A stretch of 64,000 nt of DNA from Phenylobacterium sp. (GTDB taxonomy: Bacteria > Pseudomonadota > Alphaproteobacteria > Caulobacterales > Caulobacteraceae): NCBI RefSeq assembly GCF_020253645.1, contig NZ_JADCBG010000037.1:24501-88500 (forward strand), in the 5' to 3' direction. Position numbers and translations under genes: made by a program. Numbering within the stretch: the first letter of the stretch is position 1; every line of letters begins with the position of its first letter. Below, in pieces: positions 39,826 through 45,032 of the stretch. Below the pieces are notes generated by a model. The model had not been told where the DNA came from and did no database searches. It worked only from the letters and a program-made list of their open reading frames with translations.

Positions 39826-39907
39826 TCGAACCTCCGGCGCCGGCCCCCGCGCAATGCGGACGGGGCCGGCCGGCGGCTCCGTCCCTGGCCAACCAAGGGA
39901 TAGGACC

Positions 39908-41404
39908 ATGAGCACCCCCAATACATCGACAGACCCAGCGGAGGCGTCACGCCCCGAGGCCCGCGCGCCCCGCGGCTTCGTTGACCGCCGCGCCCGCGAC
40001 CTGGCCGCAGAGCGCCGGATCCTGGCCCGGGTCTCCGAGGTCTATGAGCGCTATGGCTTCGAGGCCCTCGACACCGGCGCCCTCGAGTACGCCGACGCCC
40101 TGGGCAAGTTCCTGCCCGACGCCGACCGTCCCAACGAAGGCGTCTTCGCTCTGCAGGACGACGACGACCAGTGGATGGCCCTGCGCTACGACCTCACCGC
40201 GCCCCTGGCCCGCTTTGTCGCCCAGAACCGCGAGGGCCTGACCCGGCCCTTCCGGCGCTACGCCTACGGCCCGGTCTGGCGCAACGAGAAGCCCGGCCCG
40301 GGGCGTTTCCGCGAGTTCACCCAGTGCGACGCCGACACGGTGGGTTCGGCCCGGCCCGAGGCCGACGCGGAGATCATCGCCATGGCCGCCGAGGGCCTGG
40401 CCGCCGCCGGCCTGCCAGAGGGCGGCTATGTCCTGCGCATCAACAACCGGCGCCTGCTCAACGGCCTGCTCGACCGGGCCGGCGTGGCGGACGAGGGCCA
40501 GAAGCTGGCCGTCCTGCGGGCCGTCGACAAGCTGGACAGGCTGGGCCCGGAGGGCGTCCGCCTCCTCCTCGGCGAGGGCCGGAAGGACGAGTCCGGGGCC
40601 TTCACCCGCGGGGCCGGGCTCACGCCCTCGGCGGCCGAGTCCGTCCTGGCCTTCACCGCCGCGGGGGCGGGCGACCGGGCCGAGACCCTGCGCCGGATCG
40701 CCGCGGTGATCGGCGGCTCGGCCGAGGGCGACGCCGGGCTCGAGGAGCTGGCGGGCATTGACCGGGCCCTCGCCGGCATGGGTGTGGGCGCCGACCGGGC
40801 GGTCTTCGATCCCTCCGTGGTCCGGGGGCTGGAGTACTACACCGGCGCCGTCTTCGAGGCTGAGCTGCGCCTCGAGACCCTGGACGAGAAGGGCCAGCCG
40901 GCCCGGTTCGGCTCGGTGGGCGGTGGCGGCCGCTATGATGACCTGATCGCCCGCTTCACAGGAGAGCGCACCCCCGCCACCGGCTTCTCCTTCGGCGTCT
41001 CGCGCCTCGCCGCCGCCCTTCGCGCCGCGGGCCGGGACCTGGGCCGGGAGGCGAGGGGGCCTGTCGTGATCATCGCCTTCTCGCCGGACGACATGGCCGC
41101 CTACTTCGCCGTGGCCGCCGAACTGCGGGCCGCCGGGATCGCCGCCGAGGTCTATCTCGGCGCTTCCGGGATGAAGGCCCAGATGAAGTACGCCGACCGC
41201 CGTCTGTCTCCCGCCGCCGTCATCCTGGGGGGTGACGAGATCGCCGCCGGGACGGTCACCATCAAGGACCTCGACCTCGGCCGGGCCCTCGCCTCCGACG
41301 TCACGGACAACGCCGCCTGGCGGGCCGAACGCCCGGGCCAGCAGACCGTCCCCCGCGACCAGTTGGTCGGCGTGGTCCGGCGCATCCTGGGGGACGCGCC
41401 ATGA
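39908..41404 (+). CDS. hisS: Histidine--tRNA ligase
   Basis: PRGFVD, LRYDLTAP.ARF, WRNEKPGPGRFREF.QCDAD, VRGLEYYTG, GGGRYD. Confidence 0.97.
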   Translation: MSTPNTSTDPAEASRPEARAPRGFVDRRARDLAAERRILARVSEVYERYGFEALDTGALEYADALGKFLPDADRPNEGVFALQDDDDQWMALRYDLTAPLARFVAQNREGLTRPFRRYAYGPVWRNEKPGPGRFREFTQCDADTVGSARPEADAEIIAMAAEGLAAAGLPEGGYVLRINNRRLLNGLLDRAGVADEGQKLAVLRAVDKLDRLGPEGVRLLLGEGRKDESGAFTRGAGLTPSAAESVLAFTAAGAGDRAETLRRIAAVIGGSAEGDAGLEELAGIDRALAGMGVGADRAVFDPSVVRGLEYYTGAVFEAELRLETLDEKGQPARFGSVGGGGRYDDLIARFTGERTPATGFSFGVSRLAAALRAAGRDLGREARGPVVIIAFSPDDMAAYFAVAAELRAAGIAAEVYLGASGMKAQMKYADRRLSPAAVILGGDEIAAGTVTIKDLDLGRALASDVTDNAAWRAERPGQQTVPRDQLVGVVRRILGDAP

Positions 41405-42531
41405 TCCAGACCCCGGCTCTTCCGCAAGCCCGGCTCGAGGCGATCCGCACGCCTTTTCGGGAGACCGGAGCGGACTGGGTGCAACCCCCGGTCCTTCAGC
41501 CCCTGTCCTTGATCCTTGACCTGGCGGGAGAGGCCCTCCGCTCTCAGCTCTTCGTGCTTCAGGCGGCGGGTGGGGAAGAACTCTGCCTTCGCCCGGACCT
41601 CACCACGCCCGTGGCACGGCTGCACCTTGCGTCCGGTGCGGCGACCCGGGACTACGCCTATGAGGGGCTTGTCTTCCGGGCCTCCGCGCATGAACCTCAG
41701 GAGGTGCTGCAGATCGGCATAGAGAGGTTCGCGCCAGAGGCCGATCGGGTCTCGGCCGACGCGGATCTGGTGGACCTGATCTGGCGCGCCGCGATGGGCG
41801 GGGGGCGGCGGGACCTGTCGCTAAGGCTGGGTGATGCGGGTCTCTTTCGCGCCTTTGTAGAGTCCCTCGCCCTGAGCCCGGTCCAGACTTCCCGGCTGGT
41901 GCGGATGGCCGCCCGACCCAGCCAGATGGCCGCAGAGCTGGCCGGAGCGGGCGAGTCGGCCCTCCCGCGGGAGGAAGAGGCTGTGATTGCAAGGCGGCTC
42001 GGCGCCCTTCCGCCAGAGGAGGCTGCGGCCCTTCTGGAGGAAATCTGGAGCCTCTCAGGCATCACCCCGGTGGGAGGGCGAGGTGCGATGGAGATCGCCG
42101 CCCGGCTTATCCGCCGCTCCGAGTCCGCCCTGGCGCCCGCCCTCTCTCAGGGCGAGGCGGACGCTGTCCGAGCTTTCCTGGCGGTTCGGGACACGCCCCG
42201 GGAAGCCCTGAAGCAGATCGCCCGGCTGGCGCCAGGCGCAGGGACCCTGCAGGCGCGACTCACCGACTGGGCGCGCCGACTGGACAGGATCGAGGCGGCG
42301 TCCGCCGGCCTTGCCGCCACTGTTTTCGAGGCCGCGCCCCGAGGCGATTTCGCCTATTACGACGGCCTGGTCGTCGAGGTCCTCTCTGACGCCCTGGGCC
42401 CCGATCGCCCCCTTGCCGCCGGCGGGCGGTACGACGGTCTTCCCGCCCGCCTCTCAGGGGCGCCGTGGACCGGATCGGCTCTGGGCGGGATGGTCCTGCC
42501 CGGACGAGCCATCCTGGAGGCGGGACAATGA
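41401..42531 (+). CDS. hisZ: ATP phosphoribosyltransferase regulatory subunit
   Basis: LCLRPDLT.PV, Y.Y.G.VFR, Q.GIE, AYYDG, AGGRYDGL; HisRS paralog lying between hisS and hisG. Confidence 0.9.
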   Translation: MIQTPALPQARLEAIRTPFRETGADWVQPPVLQPLSLILDLAGEALRSQLFVLQAAGGEELCLRPDLTTPVARLHLASGAATRDYAYEGLVFRASAHEPQEVLQIGIERFAPEADRVSADADLVDLIWRAAMGGGRRDLSLRLGDAGLFRAFVESLALSPVQTSRLVRMAARPSQMAAELAGAGESALPREEEAVIARRLGALPPEEAAALLEEIWSLSGITPVGGRGAMEIAARLIRRSESALAPALSQGEADAVRAFLAVRDTPREALKQIARLAPGAGTLQARLTDWARRLDRIEAASAGLAATVFEAAPRGDFAYYDGLVVEVLSDALGPDRPLAAGGRYDGLPARLSGAPWTGSALGGMVLPGRAILEAGQ

Positions 42532-43478
42532 ACGAGCCGCTGATCTTCGCCATTCCCTCAAAGGGGCGATTGAAGGAGCAGGTCGAGTCCTGGCTCGAGG
42601 ACTGTGGCCTCGGCCTCGACATGAGCGGGGGAGAGCGGGGCTACCGGGCCCGCCTTCGCGGTGTCGACGGCGTCCAGGTCCGGCTCTTGTCCGCCAGCGA
42701 CATCGCCTCCGCCCTGGTGGCCGGTGAGGCGCATCTTGGAATCACGGGCGAGGACCTTCTGCGGGAACAGGGCGCGGAGGCGGCTGCGTCCGCCCTGCTG
42801 CTGCGGGCTCTTGGCTTCGGCCGGGCGGACCTGGTCGTCGCCGCGCCCCGCAGCTGGCTGGATGTCTCGACGCTCGCCGACCTGGAGGAGGTCGCCCATG
42901 AGCGCCTGGTCCGAACTGGCCGCCGGCTGCGGGTGGCCACAAAGTACCTTGTCCAGACCCGTGAGTTCTTCGCCCGCCACGGAGTGACGGACTATCGGAT
43001 CGTGGAGTCCGGCGGCGCCACTGAGGGGGCGCCGGCTGCAGGCGTCGCCGATGTGGTGGTGGACATCACCACCACCGGAGCGACCCTGCGGGCCAATGAC
43101 CTGAAGATCCTTCGTGACGGGATCATTCTCCGGAGCCAGGCTCAGCTGACGGCCGCCCTGCGGGCGCGATGGACGCCGGAAGGGCTGGTTGCGGCGGAAT
43201 CGCTGGTCAGGATCGTCGAGGCCAGGGCCGCGGCCCACGCCTCCGCGACACTCATCTGGCCGGGTGGCGATTCGGACCCTATCCTTCCTGACCTGGAGGC
43301 TCTCGGGGCCGTACGCCGGCCGAATGGTCTCCTGGCTCCGGTCGATCTGGTGGCCCGTGTTGCGGCCCGACTGACGGCCGCGGGGCGCGGGCCCGTCACG
43401 GCCTCACGCCCCGACTTCGTCTTCGAGACGGCCTGCCCGCCGATCGAGCGGCTGCGCAGCGCCCTGCAACTTATTTGA
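42528..43478 (+). CDS. hisG: ATP phosphoribosyltransferase
   Basis: AIPSKGRL, LGITGEDL, LGFGRA, RVATKY, GATEGAP..G.AD..VDITTTG.TL.AN.L. Confidence 0.96.
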   Translation: MNEPLIFAIPSKGRLKEQVESWLEDCGLGLDMSGGERGYRARLRGVDGVQVRLLSASDIASALVAGEAHLGITGEDLLREQGAEAAASALLLRALGFGRADLVVAAPRSWLDVSTLADLEEVAHERLVRTGRRLRVATKYLVQTREFFARHGVTDYRIVESGGATEGAPAAGVADVVVDITTTGATLRANDLKILRDGIILRSQAQLTAALRARWTPEGLVAAESLVRIVEARAAAHASATLIWPGGDSDPILPDLEALGAVRRPNGLLAPVDLVARVAARLTAAGRGPVTASRPDFVFETACPPIERLRSALQLI

Positions 43479-43537
43479 CGGAAGTGTCAGGATTTTTACC
43501 TGCATCTGCAAGATTGGACGCACGATCAAACCGCTTG

Positions 43538-43566
43538 TTGACAGTGCCGGGCATTTGCCCTCAATT
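43538..43566 (+). promoter_or_regulatory. Sigma70-type promoter of the intergenic sRNA
   Basis: TTGACA-N17-TCAATT in an AT-rich stretch. Confidence 0.7.
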
Positions 43567-43569
43567 CTT

Positions 43570-43689
43570 GTCCTGCGAGAGACATGGCGGCCATTGAACC
43601 GTCAATCTCCGGCGTTTCGGGGAGGAAACGCCCTCTTCAATTCCAAGGCCGAAGGCCGAGACAACCCGCCGGGAGGCGGGTTGTTTTTT
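43570..43689 (+). ncRNA. Putative trans-acting small RNA (~120 nt)
   Basis: Own promoter; stem GGCGTTTC/GAAACGCC with loop GGGGAG; outer ATTGAA/TTCAAT pairing; intrinsic terminator; 5' end estimated. Confidence 0.7.
43661..43689 (+). terminator. Intrinsic terminator of the sRNA
   Basis: Perfect 10-bp stem ACAACCCGCC-ggga-GGCGGGTTGT followed by TTTTT. Confidence 0.88.
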
Positions 43690-43826
43690 GAATCCGGCGG
43701 AACTTTGACAAAGCCGTCAAATCCATTTCAGCGGCGACAAGGGCGGGCGCCAATCCCCGCCAGAGCCTGCTCCTGCAGGCCTGATTCGCCTGGGCGAAGG
43801 GCGCCGGATGGCGGAAGTGACATCGT

Positions 43827-45032
43827 ATGACCCGTCCCGGCGTCGTCATCGCAGGCGCAGGACCCGCCGGACTCATGGCCGCTGAGATCCTCGCCCGAGG
43901 CGGGGCGAAGGTGACCGTCCATGACCGCATGCCCAGCCCCGCCCGTCGCCTTCTGATGGCGGGTCGCGGCGGTCTGAACCTCACCCACTCCGAGCCCATC
44001 ACCGACATGATCGGGCGCTACAGCGCGCGGTCGGACAGGATCGCGCCATTCCTGGAGGCGTTCCCGCCCGCCGCCCTTCGCGACTGGGCCGAGGGACTGG
44101 GCCAGGCGACCTTTGTCGGCACCAGCGGTCGGGTCTTTCCACGTGCCCTCAAGGCCTCTCCCCTGGTGCGGGCGTGGCTGACGCGTCTGGACGATCTCGG
44201 GGTCGAAATCCGGCTCCGCTCGACCTGGACCGGGTGGGATCCGGACGGGCGTCCACGATTCCGTGGGCCTGATGGGGTCGAGGTTGGCCACGCCGCCGAC
44301 GCCCTGCTCCTTGCACTCGGGGGCGCCAGCTGGCCCCGCCTGGGGGCGGACGGCGGATGGACGGACCTGCTGGCTGCCGCTGGCGTCCCGCCTGCACCCC
44401 TCCGCCCAGCCAACTGTGGATTCGTCGCCGACCTGTCGCCGGCCTTCGCCGCCCGTCATGCCGGCGCCCCCCTGAAGGCCGTGGAGATCCGGTTCGGCGA
44501 GGCCACTGCGCGGGGAGATGTGGTTCTGACGCGTCGGGGTCTGGAGGGCGGGGCGATCTACGCCCTCTCCGCCCGCCTCCGGGACGCTGTCGAGTCGACA
44601 GGCGAGGCCCGGGTGTCCATTGATCTGCGGCCCGACCGGAGTATCGACGACCTGGCGGATCGGATCGCCCGCCAGCCACGAAAGGCCAGTCTGGCGACGC
44701 GACTGCGCAAGGCCCTGTCCCTTTCGCCCGCTGCGATCGCCCTGCTGCGCGACGCAGGCCCACCCCCGGCGGATCCCCTGGCCCTGGCCCGCAAGATCAA
44801 GTCCACCCCTCTGCGCCTTGTGGCGACCTCCGGTCTTGAGCGCGCCATCTCGACGGCGGGCGGCGTCCGGTTCGAAGACCTTGACCCTGGCCTCCAGCTC
44901 CGGGCGAGGCCCGGGGTCTGGGTCGCCGGAGAGATGATCGACTGGGAGGCGCCGACCGGGGGCTATCTCCTGCAGGCGGTCTTCGCCACCGGCGTCCGCG
45001 CCGCCCGGAACATTCTCGACCGGGCGGGCTGA
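43827..45032 (+). CDS. HI0933/BaiN-like flavoprotein
   Basis: IAGAGPAGLMAA, LMAGRGGLNLTHSE, GTSGRVFP, AISTAGGV, GEM.DWEAPTGGYLLQ. Confidence 0.9.
   Translation: MTRPGVVIAGAGPAGLMAAEILARGGAKVTVHDRMPSPARRLLMAGRGGLNLTHSEPITDMIGRYSARSDRIAPFLEAFPPAALRDWAEGLGQATFVGTSGRVFPRALKASPLVRAWLTRLDDLGVEIRLRSTWTGWDPDGRPRFRGPDGVEVGHAADALLLALGGASWPRLGADGGWTDLLAAAGVPPAPLRPANCGFVADLSPAFAARHAGAPLKAVEIRFGEATARGDVVLTRRGLEGGAIYALSARLRDAVESTGEARVSIDLRPDRSIDDLADRIARQPRKASLATRLRKALSLSPAAIALLRDAGPPPADPLALARKIKSTPLRLVATSGLERAISTAGGVRFEDLDPGLQLRARPGVWVAGEMIDWEAPTGGYLLQAVFATGVRAARNILDRAG

Follow-up and report, generated by a model that had tools for sequence, protein, structure and literature searches.

CrfA is a small RNA (sRNA) of Caulobacter crescentus (CCNA_R0093; Rfam family RF01527). 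It is reported to act as a sponge for SisA-D, which are four siblings within the alphaR8 family of sRNAs, and not as an activator that binds mRNAs (Vogt et al., Nat Commun 2025, PMC12559287). The evidence presented in that study includes Hfq RIL-seq (RNA interaction by ligation and sequencing), structure probing, compensatory mutations and reporters. We analyzed a window of 64,000 nucleotides (nt), this being the whole stretch of DNA under study, which carries an element between hisG and a flavoprotein gene that is almost certainly an ortholog of CrfA. In our reading, this is a crfA gene with its own promoter, which codes for an RNA of about 115 nt and has an anti-seed in its second hairpin that would sponge alphaR8 sRNAs. 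We assign a probability of roughly 0.85 to this reading as a whole.

In C. crescentus, SisA-D are described as sharing the single-stranded core UUUCCUCCCU. The CrfA residues G49-C63 were protected by all four Sis sRNAs in structure probing. Replacement of G49-G54 by UUCG abolished the interaction of CrfA, and the M1/M2 mutations within the G49-C63 site abolished sponging. The interaction between CrfA and alphaR8 sRNAs needs Hfq. Upon removal of carbon, CrfA rises about six-fold within 10 minutes from a low basal level, while SisA drops about 50-fold within 30 minutes, and TonB-dependent receptors and other targets are de-repressed (all according to PMC12559287). The alphaR8 sRNAs occur in all Alphaproteobacteria except Rickettsiales and are often present in multiple copies in Caulobacterales (work cited in PMC12559287). 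CrfA is the most strongly Hfq-enriched sRNA of C. crescentus.

A functional analogy is provided by QrrX, the sponge of the Vibrio Qrr sRNAs. As described for CrfA, a single sponge neutralizes sibling sRNAs via their shared seed and speeds up their decay (PMC12559287). QrrX and CrfA are, however, unrelated in sequence, occur in unrelated organisms and differ in their input signal (quorum sensing and carbon starvation, respectively), so that the likeness is one of function only. The element in the window is not a new analogue but belongs to a published family with a published mechanism. An earlier reading of this DNA from its letters only (the sequence-only reading) had presented it as a novel CrfA-like sponge. 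The mechanism holds up but the novelty does not, as the element scores as CrfA itself (RF01527) and the mechanism was published in 2025.

Assignment to the CrfA family

(a) Comparison with Rfam by Infernal, which the sequence-only reading had suggested as a check, covered the whole 64-kb window. CrfA is the only family above its gathering score. The match spans 43575-43693 (+) and the full model (positions 1-136), with 40.8 bits against a gathering score of 38, while suhB remained unmatched on either strand, also in permissive scans, which brought up no other match of relevance. A family model that was built here (R1) matches 43574-43689 at 82 bits (E = 1.4e-19). Hairpin 2 (22 nt) is identical to positions 41-62 of the Rfam CrfA consensus. 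The segment 43619-43633 corresponds to consensus positions 49-63, GGGGAGGAAACGCCC, with all 15 nt identical. The C. crescentus numbering G49-C63 was obtained by counting along the Rfam consensus, where the loop GGGGAG occupies G49-G54. Hairpin 1 and the terminator match the CrfA consensus by structure and not by sequence. Family membership, the identity of the site, an architecture with covariation, synteny, the promoter box and the complementarity to the alphaR8 consensus are direct findings. For annotation, the consequence is routine: the intergenic region after hisG deserves the label crfA (RF01527).

(b) The window copy and CrfA of C. crescentus belong to the same covariance-model family and have the same four-hairpin architecture, with an identical 22-nt hairpin 2 and an identical 15-nt site. 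As in Caulobacter, the element follows hisS-hisZ-hisG and has TTGAC at the same upstream distance. Overall, it is only about 66% identical to the Caulobacter copies. The window RNA is shorter (about 115 nt, compared to a model of 136 positions) and so is its hairpin 1. Its terminator combines a tight loop (GGGA) with a clean U-run, whereas Caulobacter CrfA has a large UAUCCCCC loop and a poor U-run. The -10 region is TCAATT rather than TTTCTA, the self-complementary CCUCUUC is extra relative to C. crescentus CrfA, and the downstream neighbor is a flavoprotein gene instead of a convergent pepO. The coordinates of all features are listed in Table 1.

Table 1. Positions in the window of the crfA element, its parts and the neighboring genes.
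Feature	Positions	Strand	Remarks
-35-like box	43538-43543	+	TTGACA; read directly
-10-like box	43561-43566	+	TCAATT; 17-nt spacer after the -35 box; read directly
Predicted CrfA transcript	43575-43689	+	about 115 nt, four hairpins; from Rfam RF01527 and model R1
Hairpin 1	43579-43609	+	outer helix GAGA/TCTC, inner helix TGGCGG/CCGTCA; ATTGAA in the loop
Hairpin 2	43611-43632	+	8-bp stem GGCGUUUC/GAAACGCC, 6-nt G/A-rich loop GGGGAG
Strings of hairpin 2	43611-43618, 43619-43624, 43625-43632	+	GGCGTTTC, GGGGAG, GAAACGCC; read directly
Anti-seed GGGGAGGAAACGCCC	43619-43633	+	predicted binding site for alphaR8 (SisA-D/SuhB/MmgR); equals CrfA G49-C63
CCUCUUC	43632-43638	+	potential partner of GGGGAGG (43619-43625) in an alternative hairpin, by which the anti-seed is masked
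Hairpin 3	43647-43657	+	GGCC-GAA-GGCC; predicted fold
Intrinsic terminator	43658-43689	+	10-bp perfect stem, 13 bp with G-U and A-U extensions; U-run to 43689
Terminator strings	43661-43670, 43675-43684	+	ACAACCCGCC, loop GGGA, GGCGGGTTGT, then TTTTT; read directly
hisS	39854-41404	+	first gene of hisS-hisZ-hisG, upstream of the element
hisZ	41401-42531	+	between hisS and hisG
hisG (ATP phosphoribosyltransferase)	42465-43478	+	NCBIfam TIGR00070, E = 3.7e-49; upstream neighbor
TIGR03862-family flavoprotein gene	43827-45032	+	NCBIfam, E = 4.8e-139; downstream neighbor, outside the element

(c) The 18-nt core CGTTTCGGGGAGGAAACG was used to search for homologs, with each GTDB species represented by one genome. 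At least 120 loci carry this core, about 116 of them from Caulobacterales, and four are evident chance matches. The groups represented are Brevundimonas, Caulobacter, Phenylobacterium, Asticcacaulis, Hyphomonadaceae, Terricaulis and Robiginitomaculum. The genomic context is well-conserved among the matches listed, to which the statements on neighboring genes, promoter boxes and terminator loops below also refer. In Caulobacter, Phenylobacterium and Hyphomonadaceae, the core is located 85-420 nt downstream of hisG (hisS-hisZ-hisG), while in Brevundimonas and Asticcacaulis it is found 140-210 nt downstream of hisS. Its strand is invariably that of the his genes, and the next gene is usually a convergent one for an M13 peptidase (pepO-like). 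The linkage of crfA to histidine genes thus runs through the whole order. The context of the window after hisS-hisZ-hisG is the same as in four Caulobacter loci (L018, L027, L047 and L090) and in almost all other homologs. The mapped 15-nt sponge site is thus kept letter for letter in a lake bacterium and in more than 100 species of Caulobacterales. The comparative data leave the known working of CrfA unchanged.

(d) The closest homolog among the matches listed (L059) is from a metagenome-assembled genome (MAG) labelled Phenylobacterium deserti (Caulobacteraceae). Compared with the window, its CrfA shows 80% identity, and the proteins are 95% (hisS), 81% (hisG), 73% (flavoprotein) and 79% (pepO) identical. 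Hairpin 1 of the two copies differs by U-A to C-G, G-U to A-U and G-C to G-U exchanges.

(e) The architecture is supported by covariation. A covariance model was built from 20 Phenylobacterium-type copies, and 57 non-redundant homologs were aligned to it. As this alignment is fitted to the model, the following counts lean towards it: 94.9% of the cells are paired (32-50% in slid controls), and compensatory changes occur in 24 of the 34 pairs. The covariation score is 0.312, compared to 0.124 for shuffles, none of which reached 0.312 in 500 attempts, and to 0.075 or less after partners were shifted by 1-3 columns. Compensatory changes affect all 11 pairs of the two helices of hairpin 1 and all four pairs of the helix homologous to hairpin 3 (GAGC/GCTC, GATC/GATC), and 7 of the 11 pairs of the terminator helix are changed on both sides. 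In hairpin 2, the outer two base pairs vary between G-C, G-U and A-U. The inner six are invariant, but as the search pattern demanded them, this does not count as independent evidence. A covariance model was needed for this analysis: when plain MAFFT and RNAalifold were used, hairpins 1 and 3 were misaligned, and only hairpin 2 and the terminator were recovered.

(f) A hint that is less biased by the search comes from lakes. Among related contigs (at least 85% identity) from four lake metagenomes, positions 43602-43632 are free of variants, while many differences occur in hairpins 1 and 3. There is also a peak of sequencing depth over the CrfA core (runs X2 and X4), where contig ends cluster at 43608-43631 and the k-mer depth increases from about 12 to about 300. 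Many co-occurring Caulobacterales have an identical CrfA core, and assemblies break there.

(g) Hyphomonadaceae (L007, L008, L009, L030 and L042), Terricaulis (L002 and L114) and three further loci (L050, L085 and L109) have shorter CrfA-like RNAs after hisG or hisS, which combine the 18-nt core with a TTGAC box and a terminator. When five of these were scanned with Rfam (L007, L002, L050, L085 and L109), none reached the gathering score of RF01527. The curated Rfam model therefore captures only part of the family, and conservation of the site extends to lineages outside its reach, among them Hyphomonadaceae and Terricaulis.

(h) The terminator loop of about 95 of the 116 homologs is C-rich and nearly invariant, (G)AU(G)UAUCCCCC. 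It is found in Caulobacter, Brevundimonas, Phenylobacterium and Asticcacaulis (e.g., L016:3668-3792 (-) and L018:4060-4188 (+)). The window copy (43671-43674) and that of L059 lack the UAUCCCCC loop and instead have a tight loop of 4 nt along with a clean U-run. The C-rich loop is complementary to GGGGA of the seed loop and could be a second functional site elsewhere in the family. No mention of it was found in the sections consulted of the 2025 CrfA study (PMC12559287).

Predicted pairing with alphaR8 sRNAs and fold of the window copy

(a) The consensus of the Rfam family suhB/MmgR (RF00519), to which the alphaR8 sRNAs correspond, reads GGGCGUUUcCUCCCU. Within this consensus, GGGCGUUUCCUCCCU is complementary to 43619-43633 over 15 nt without interruption, by 14 Watson-Crick pairs and one G-U pair, and the complementarity reaches past the 10-mer into the 3' arm of hairpin 2. 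The sequence-only reading had named a suhB/alpha-r8 core and had noticed that the hairpin loop and the 3' arm of the stem are complementary to it. Both points are borne out by the Rfam consensus, except that the complement ends in U and not in C. The two families are complementary but not homologous, GGGCGUUUCCUCCCU being the reverse complement of the site bar the terminal G-U. An alphaR8 sRNA consists of a weak hairpin, a single-stranded C/U-rich seed (UUUCCUCCCU) and a terminator, whereas the element carries the G/A-rich complement in a loop and a stem. Both families are Hfq-associated sRNAs with intrinsic terminators. The element is a predicted antagonist of alphaR8 and not a member of that family: RF00519 is unmatched, and the 10-mer occurs nowhere but on the strand opposite hairpin 2.

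(b) Metagenomes were scanned with GGCGTTTCCTCCCT, which revealed many loci where GCCCTCCTTG-GGCGTTTCCTCCCT-AGACTTGGGCCG precedes a terminator. All 16 tested metagenome loci with GGCGTTTCCTCCCT are Rfam suhB/MmgR, with the consensus UGCCCUUCUUGGGCGUUUcCUCCCUAgACUU. When the window RNA was cofolded with one alphaR8 RNA, exactly 43619-43633 was used, with 12.7 kcal/mol gained relative to the separate monomers. RNAduplex gave no information on the full-length pair, as shuffled partners score similarly. Because the match is to the consensus of alphaR8 sRNAs as a whole, the circuit of CrfA and alphaR8 is, as judged by sequence, probably order-wide.

(c) AlphaR8 cores were found in all four metagenomes whose contigs were compared with a locus of three alphaR8 copies. 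One of these metagenomes (X1) contains the window sequence at 100% of the sampled words and also an alphaR8 core with a terminator. This shows co-occurrence at the level of a sample rather than of a genome. The alphaR8 variant from X1 was absent from the metagenome loci retrieved. Three tandem alphaR8/suhB genes, 220 nt apart, were encountered on a 1-Mb MAG contig (L150:944-1455 (-)), which illustrates the adjacency of sibling copies noted in the literature. If the sponge role is true, one or more alphaR8 genes carrying GGCGUUUCCUCCCU are expected in the genome of the window.

(d) The window copy probably works as an alphaR8 sponge, as its counterpart does in C. crescentus. From the experiments in that species we infer the start site, induction by starvation, dependence on Hfq, sponge activity and alphaR8 partners in the genome of the window. 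CrfA would be induced when carbon runs out, and Hfq would help it to anneal to alphaR8 sRNAs. Hairpin 2 is predicted to present its GGGGAG loop, which together with the 3' arm of the stem would complement the alphaR8 core GGGCGUUUCCUCCCU with its anti-Shine-Dalgarno seed UUUCCUCCCU. Pairing would begin at the exposed loop, and the stem would then open. This would mask the alphaR8 seed and trigger decay of the alphaR8 sRNA. The mRNAs repressed by alphaR8 would then be de-repressed, mainly those for TonB-dependent receptors, transporters and metabolic genes. An independent sRNA of about 120 nt, acting as an anti-seed sponge that pairs via its G-loop and then unzips its own stem, had been proposed by the sequence-only reading, which also pointed to CrfA as a reported sponge of this family in Caulobacter. 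This is the published CrfA mechanism, and the 15-nt site is identical, so that by analogy the proposal would apply here.

(e) The element folds better than shuffled sequences (z = -3.3). Two folds of similar stability are predicted for the window copy. The unconstrained optimum contains the alternative helix GGGGAGG/CCUCUUC (-54.7 kcal/mol), and the fold with the conserved hairpin 2 is at -54.3 kcal/mol, with ensemble probabilities of about 0.47 and 0.52, respectively. Only about 15 of 56 homologs (about a quarter) have this alternative helix in full, and it carries no covariation information, since one of its sides never varies. It is tempting to speculate that CrfA of the window organism and of L059 is a self-masked two-state sponge, with a shift in fold that depends on Hfq or alphaR8, but we consider this unlikely.

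(f) The strings pointed out by the sequence-only reading (promoter boxes, hairpin, 10-bp terminator with U-tract and 348-bp gap) are all present where it had placed them. Its assumption that ATTGAA (43593-43598) and TTCAAT (43636-43641) close the central hairpin is, however, not supported. This helix has an ensemble probability of 0, and when forced it results in -46.5 instead of -54.7 kcal/mol, a cost of about 8 kcal/mol. The two segments pair in 51.9% of the cells among the 57 homologs, compared to 51.3% in shuffles, and ATTGAA is the loop of hairpin 1.

Transcription, counterevidence and rival readings

(a) The most likely origin of the CrfA transcript is a promoter of its own (TTGACA, 17 nt, TCAATT). 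Of 115 loci, 102 have TTGAC at a distance of 60-80 nt upstream of the core, compared to 2.7% of random 35-nt windows. The loci lacking it at this distance are short Hyphomonadaceae-type copies, where the box is nearer to the core. When upstream regions are aligned on the model start, TTGAC(A/T) is followed by about 12 nt, a ATTGCCGTTTTCT-like box, about 7 nt and the first model base. The ATTGCCGTTTTCT-like box belongs to Caulobacter/Phenylobacterium-type copies. The window and L059 share a variant, ATTTGCC/ATTTGAC and then TCAATTC, with the form ATTTGCCCTCAATTCT (43538-43574) in the window. A positioned TTGAC with a downstream box supports an independent promoter. The string TTGACA-N17-TCAATT, on which the sequence-only reading had based its promoter, thus stands as far as the -35 box is concerned, while the support for its -10 part is poorer (see below, (c)). 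By homology, transcription would start near 43575. The ATTGCCGTTTTCT-like box may be the binding site of the regulator for induction by carbon starvation, and the shared TTGAC and ATTGCCGTTTTCT-like boxes could help to find the regulator that induces CrfA under this condition.

(b) In one freshwater metatranscriptome, a single fragment of 133 nt covers 43600-43732, while hisG and the flavoprotein gene are uncovered. No further metatranscriptome fragment was retrieved at a lower identity threshold. The fragment carries a G>A difference at 43699. The type of adapter at its end at 43732 would indicate plus-strand RNA if the library was dUTP-stranded.

(c) Several findings weigh against the element being an active crfA gene with its own promoter. 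The window copy is only 2.8 bits above the RF01527 threshold. RF01527 scores are 44.9 bits for L059, 44.3 for Brevundimonas and 160 for Caulobacter, with a range of 62 to 160 in Phenylobacterium and Caulobacter; the score of the window copy is near the threshold because the seed sequences of RF01527 come from Caulobacter. The -10 box is weak: TCAATT agrees with TATAAT at three of six positions (TCAATTC is also present in L059), and a sigma-70 consensus scanner (E. coli-type consensus) called neither promoter nor terminator. The terminator was probably missed because G-T pairs extend its stem into the T-run, leaving too few T in the tail. An alphaR8/suhB gene was not found in the 64-kb window by pattern and Rfam scans, nor in 120 genome loci that carry CrfA. 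The alphaR8 core from metagenome X1 is on a contig of 206 nt with a depth of 4.7 compared to 10.6 and is not assignable to the genome of the window. The alternative hairpin that sequesters the anti-seed is as stable in the window copy as the conserved hairpin. Since the homologs were retrieved with the core itself, its invariance among them is in part produced by the search. Finally, the sole complementary DNA (cDNA) fragment overruns the predicted terminator by 43 nt (43690-43732). Together with the G>A difference, this overrun suggests read-through in a near-identical strain or carry-over of DNA.

(d) In the original model from 2010, CrfA is a conventional trans-acting sRNA which pairs with mRNAs (5' untranslated regions (UTRs) of TonB-dependent receptors) and stabilizes them. 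A G-rich loop could pair with any CU-rich stretch, and the model was based on the loss of CC3461 regulation in a point mutant of CrfA (as summarized in PMC12559287). According to the same study, loss of SisA pairing explains this mutant, RIL-seq in C. crescentus resulted in zero chimeras of CrfA and mRNAs, and CrfA is without effect on the reporter in a strain lacking sisA-D and in E. coli. A contiguous 15-nt match to the alphaR8 consensus, including the part within the stem, is also not expected for assorted mRNA targets. We thus consider the model very unlikely for the window copy. The sequence-only reading had offered an sRNA that targets CU-rich RNAs as its alternative, which corresponds to this older model, reported as refuted in C. 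crescentus (PMC12559287). One may also regard the element as the 3' end of the hisS-hisZ-hisG operon, i.e., as a structured 3' UTR or terminator that is possibly processed into an sRNA. The element is always directly downstream of hisS or hisG on the same strand, no obvious terminator separates it from the hisG stop codon, and the sole cDNA fragment defines no 5' end. However, TTGAC is kept at a fixed distance in 102 of the 115 loci although the upstream gene differs (hisG or hisS), and the Rfam model, which was built on the C. crescentus transcript, begins about 30 nt past this box. The low basal level of CrfA in C. crescentus and its about six-fold rise within 10 minutes of carbon removal (PMC12559287) also speak against it, as does, weakly, the lack of RNA coverage of hisG in the run that covers the sRNA. 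This leaves only a very small probability for a mere operon end. The sRNA is also not a leader of the flavoprotein gene, given that this gene is downstream of the core at only five homologous loci, most having a convergent pepO.

(e) The window copy might be a decaying or inactive CrfA. Its Rfam score of 40.8 bits is low compared to the 62 to 160 bits in Phenylobacterium and Caulobacter, its UAUCCCCC loop is lost, its -10 region is divergent and a seed-masking fold is equally stable. Yet, the 15-nt site, the four hairpins and the -35 box are all intact, and the region is identical in contigs from several lake metagenomes. L059 has the same type of terminator and the same -10 box along with compensatory changes in hairpin 1, so that this form is maintained across species. 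Decay is thus a highly improbable explanation. The probability is close to nil that the functional transcript is on the minus strand, with a hairpin presenting the alphaR8-like seed GUUUCCUCCCC. That strand carries TTTCCTCCCC at 43619-43628, where the 10-mer pattern has its one perfect match within the window. However, RF00519 is unmatched on both strands (E-values up to 10 in 43300-43950 and up to 5 in the whole window), and alphaR8 RNAs have their seed single-stranded after a weak hairpin and have other conserved flanks. The U-run of the terminator is restricted to the plus strand, and the conserved -35 box and the orientation of the his genes point to the plus strand in all homologs. An active CrfA sponge on the plus strand is thus the preferred reading.

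Neighboring genes and source organism

(a) The hisG stop codon (43478) is separated from the next ATG (43827) by exactly 348 bp. All flanking genes (hisS, hisZ, hisG and the flavoprotein gene) are on the plus strand. In a public assembly, hisG is called at 42528-43478 (316 amino acids).

(b) The source organism is an uncultured freshwater bacterium of the Caulobacteraceae that is related to Phenylobacterium. The window sequence is present in about 20 freshwater and lake metagenomes, which identifies the source as an uncultured lake bacterium. An exact-protein look-up retrieved only an 8.9-kb Logan contig of the same locus and not the rest of the genome.

(c) CC3513 (RF01528), another Caulobacter sRNA, has no match at threshold in the window. 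It is found about 4 kb from crfA in a Caulobacter genome (L018:75-245 (-)) and in a Phenylobacterium genome (L016:7601-7767 (+)).

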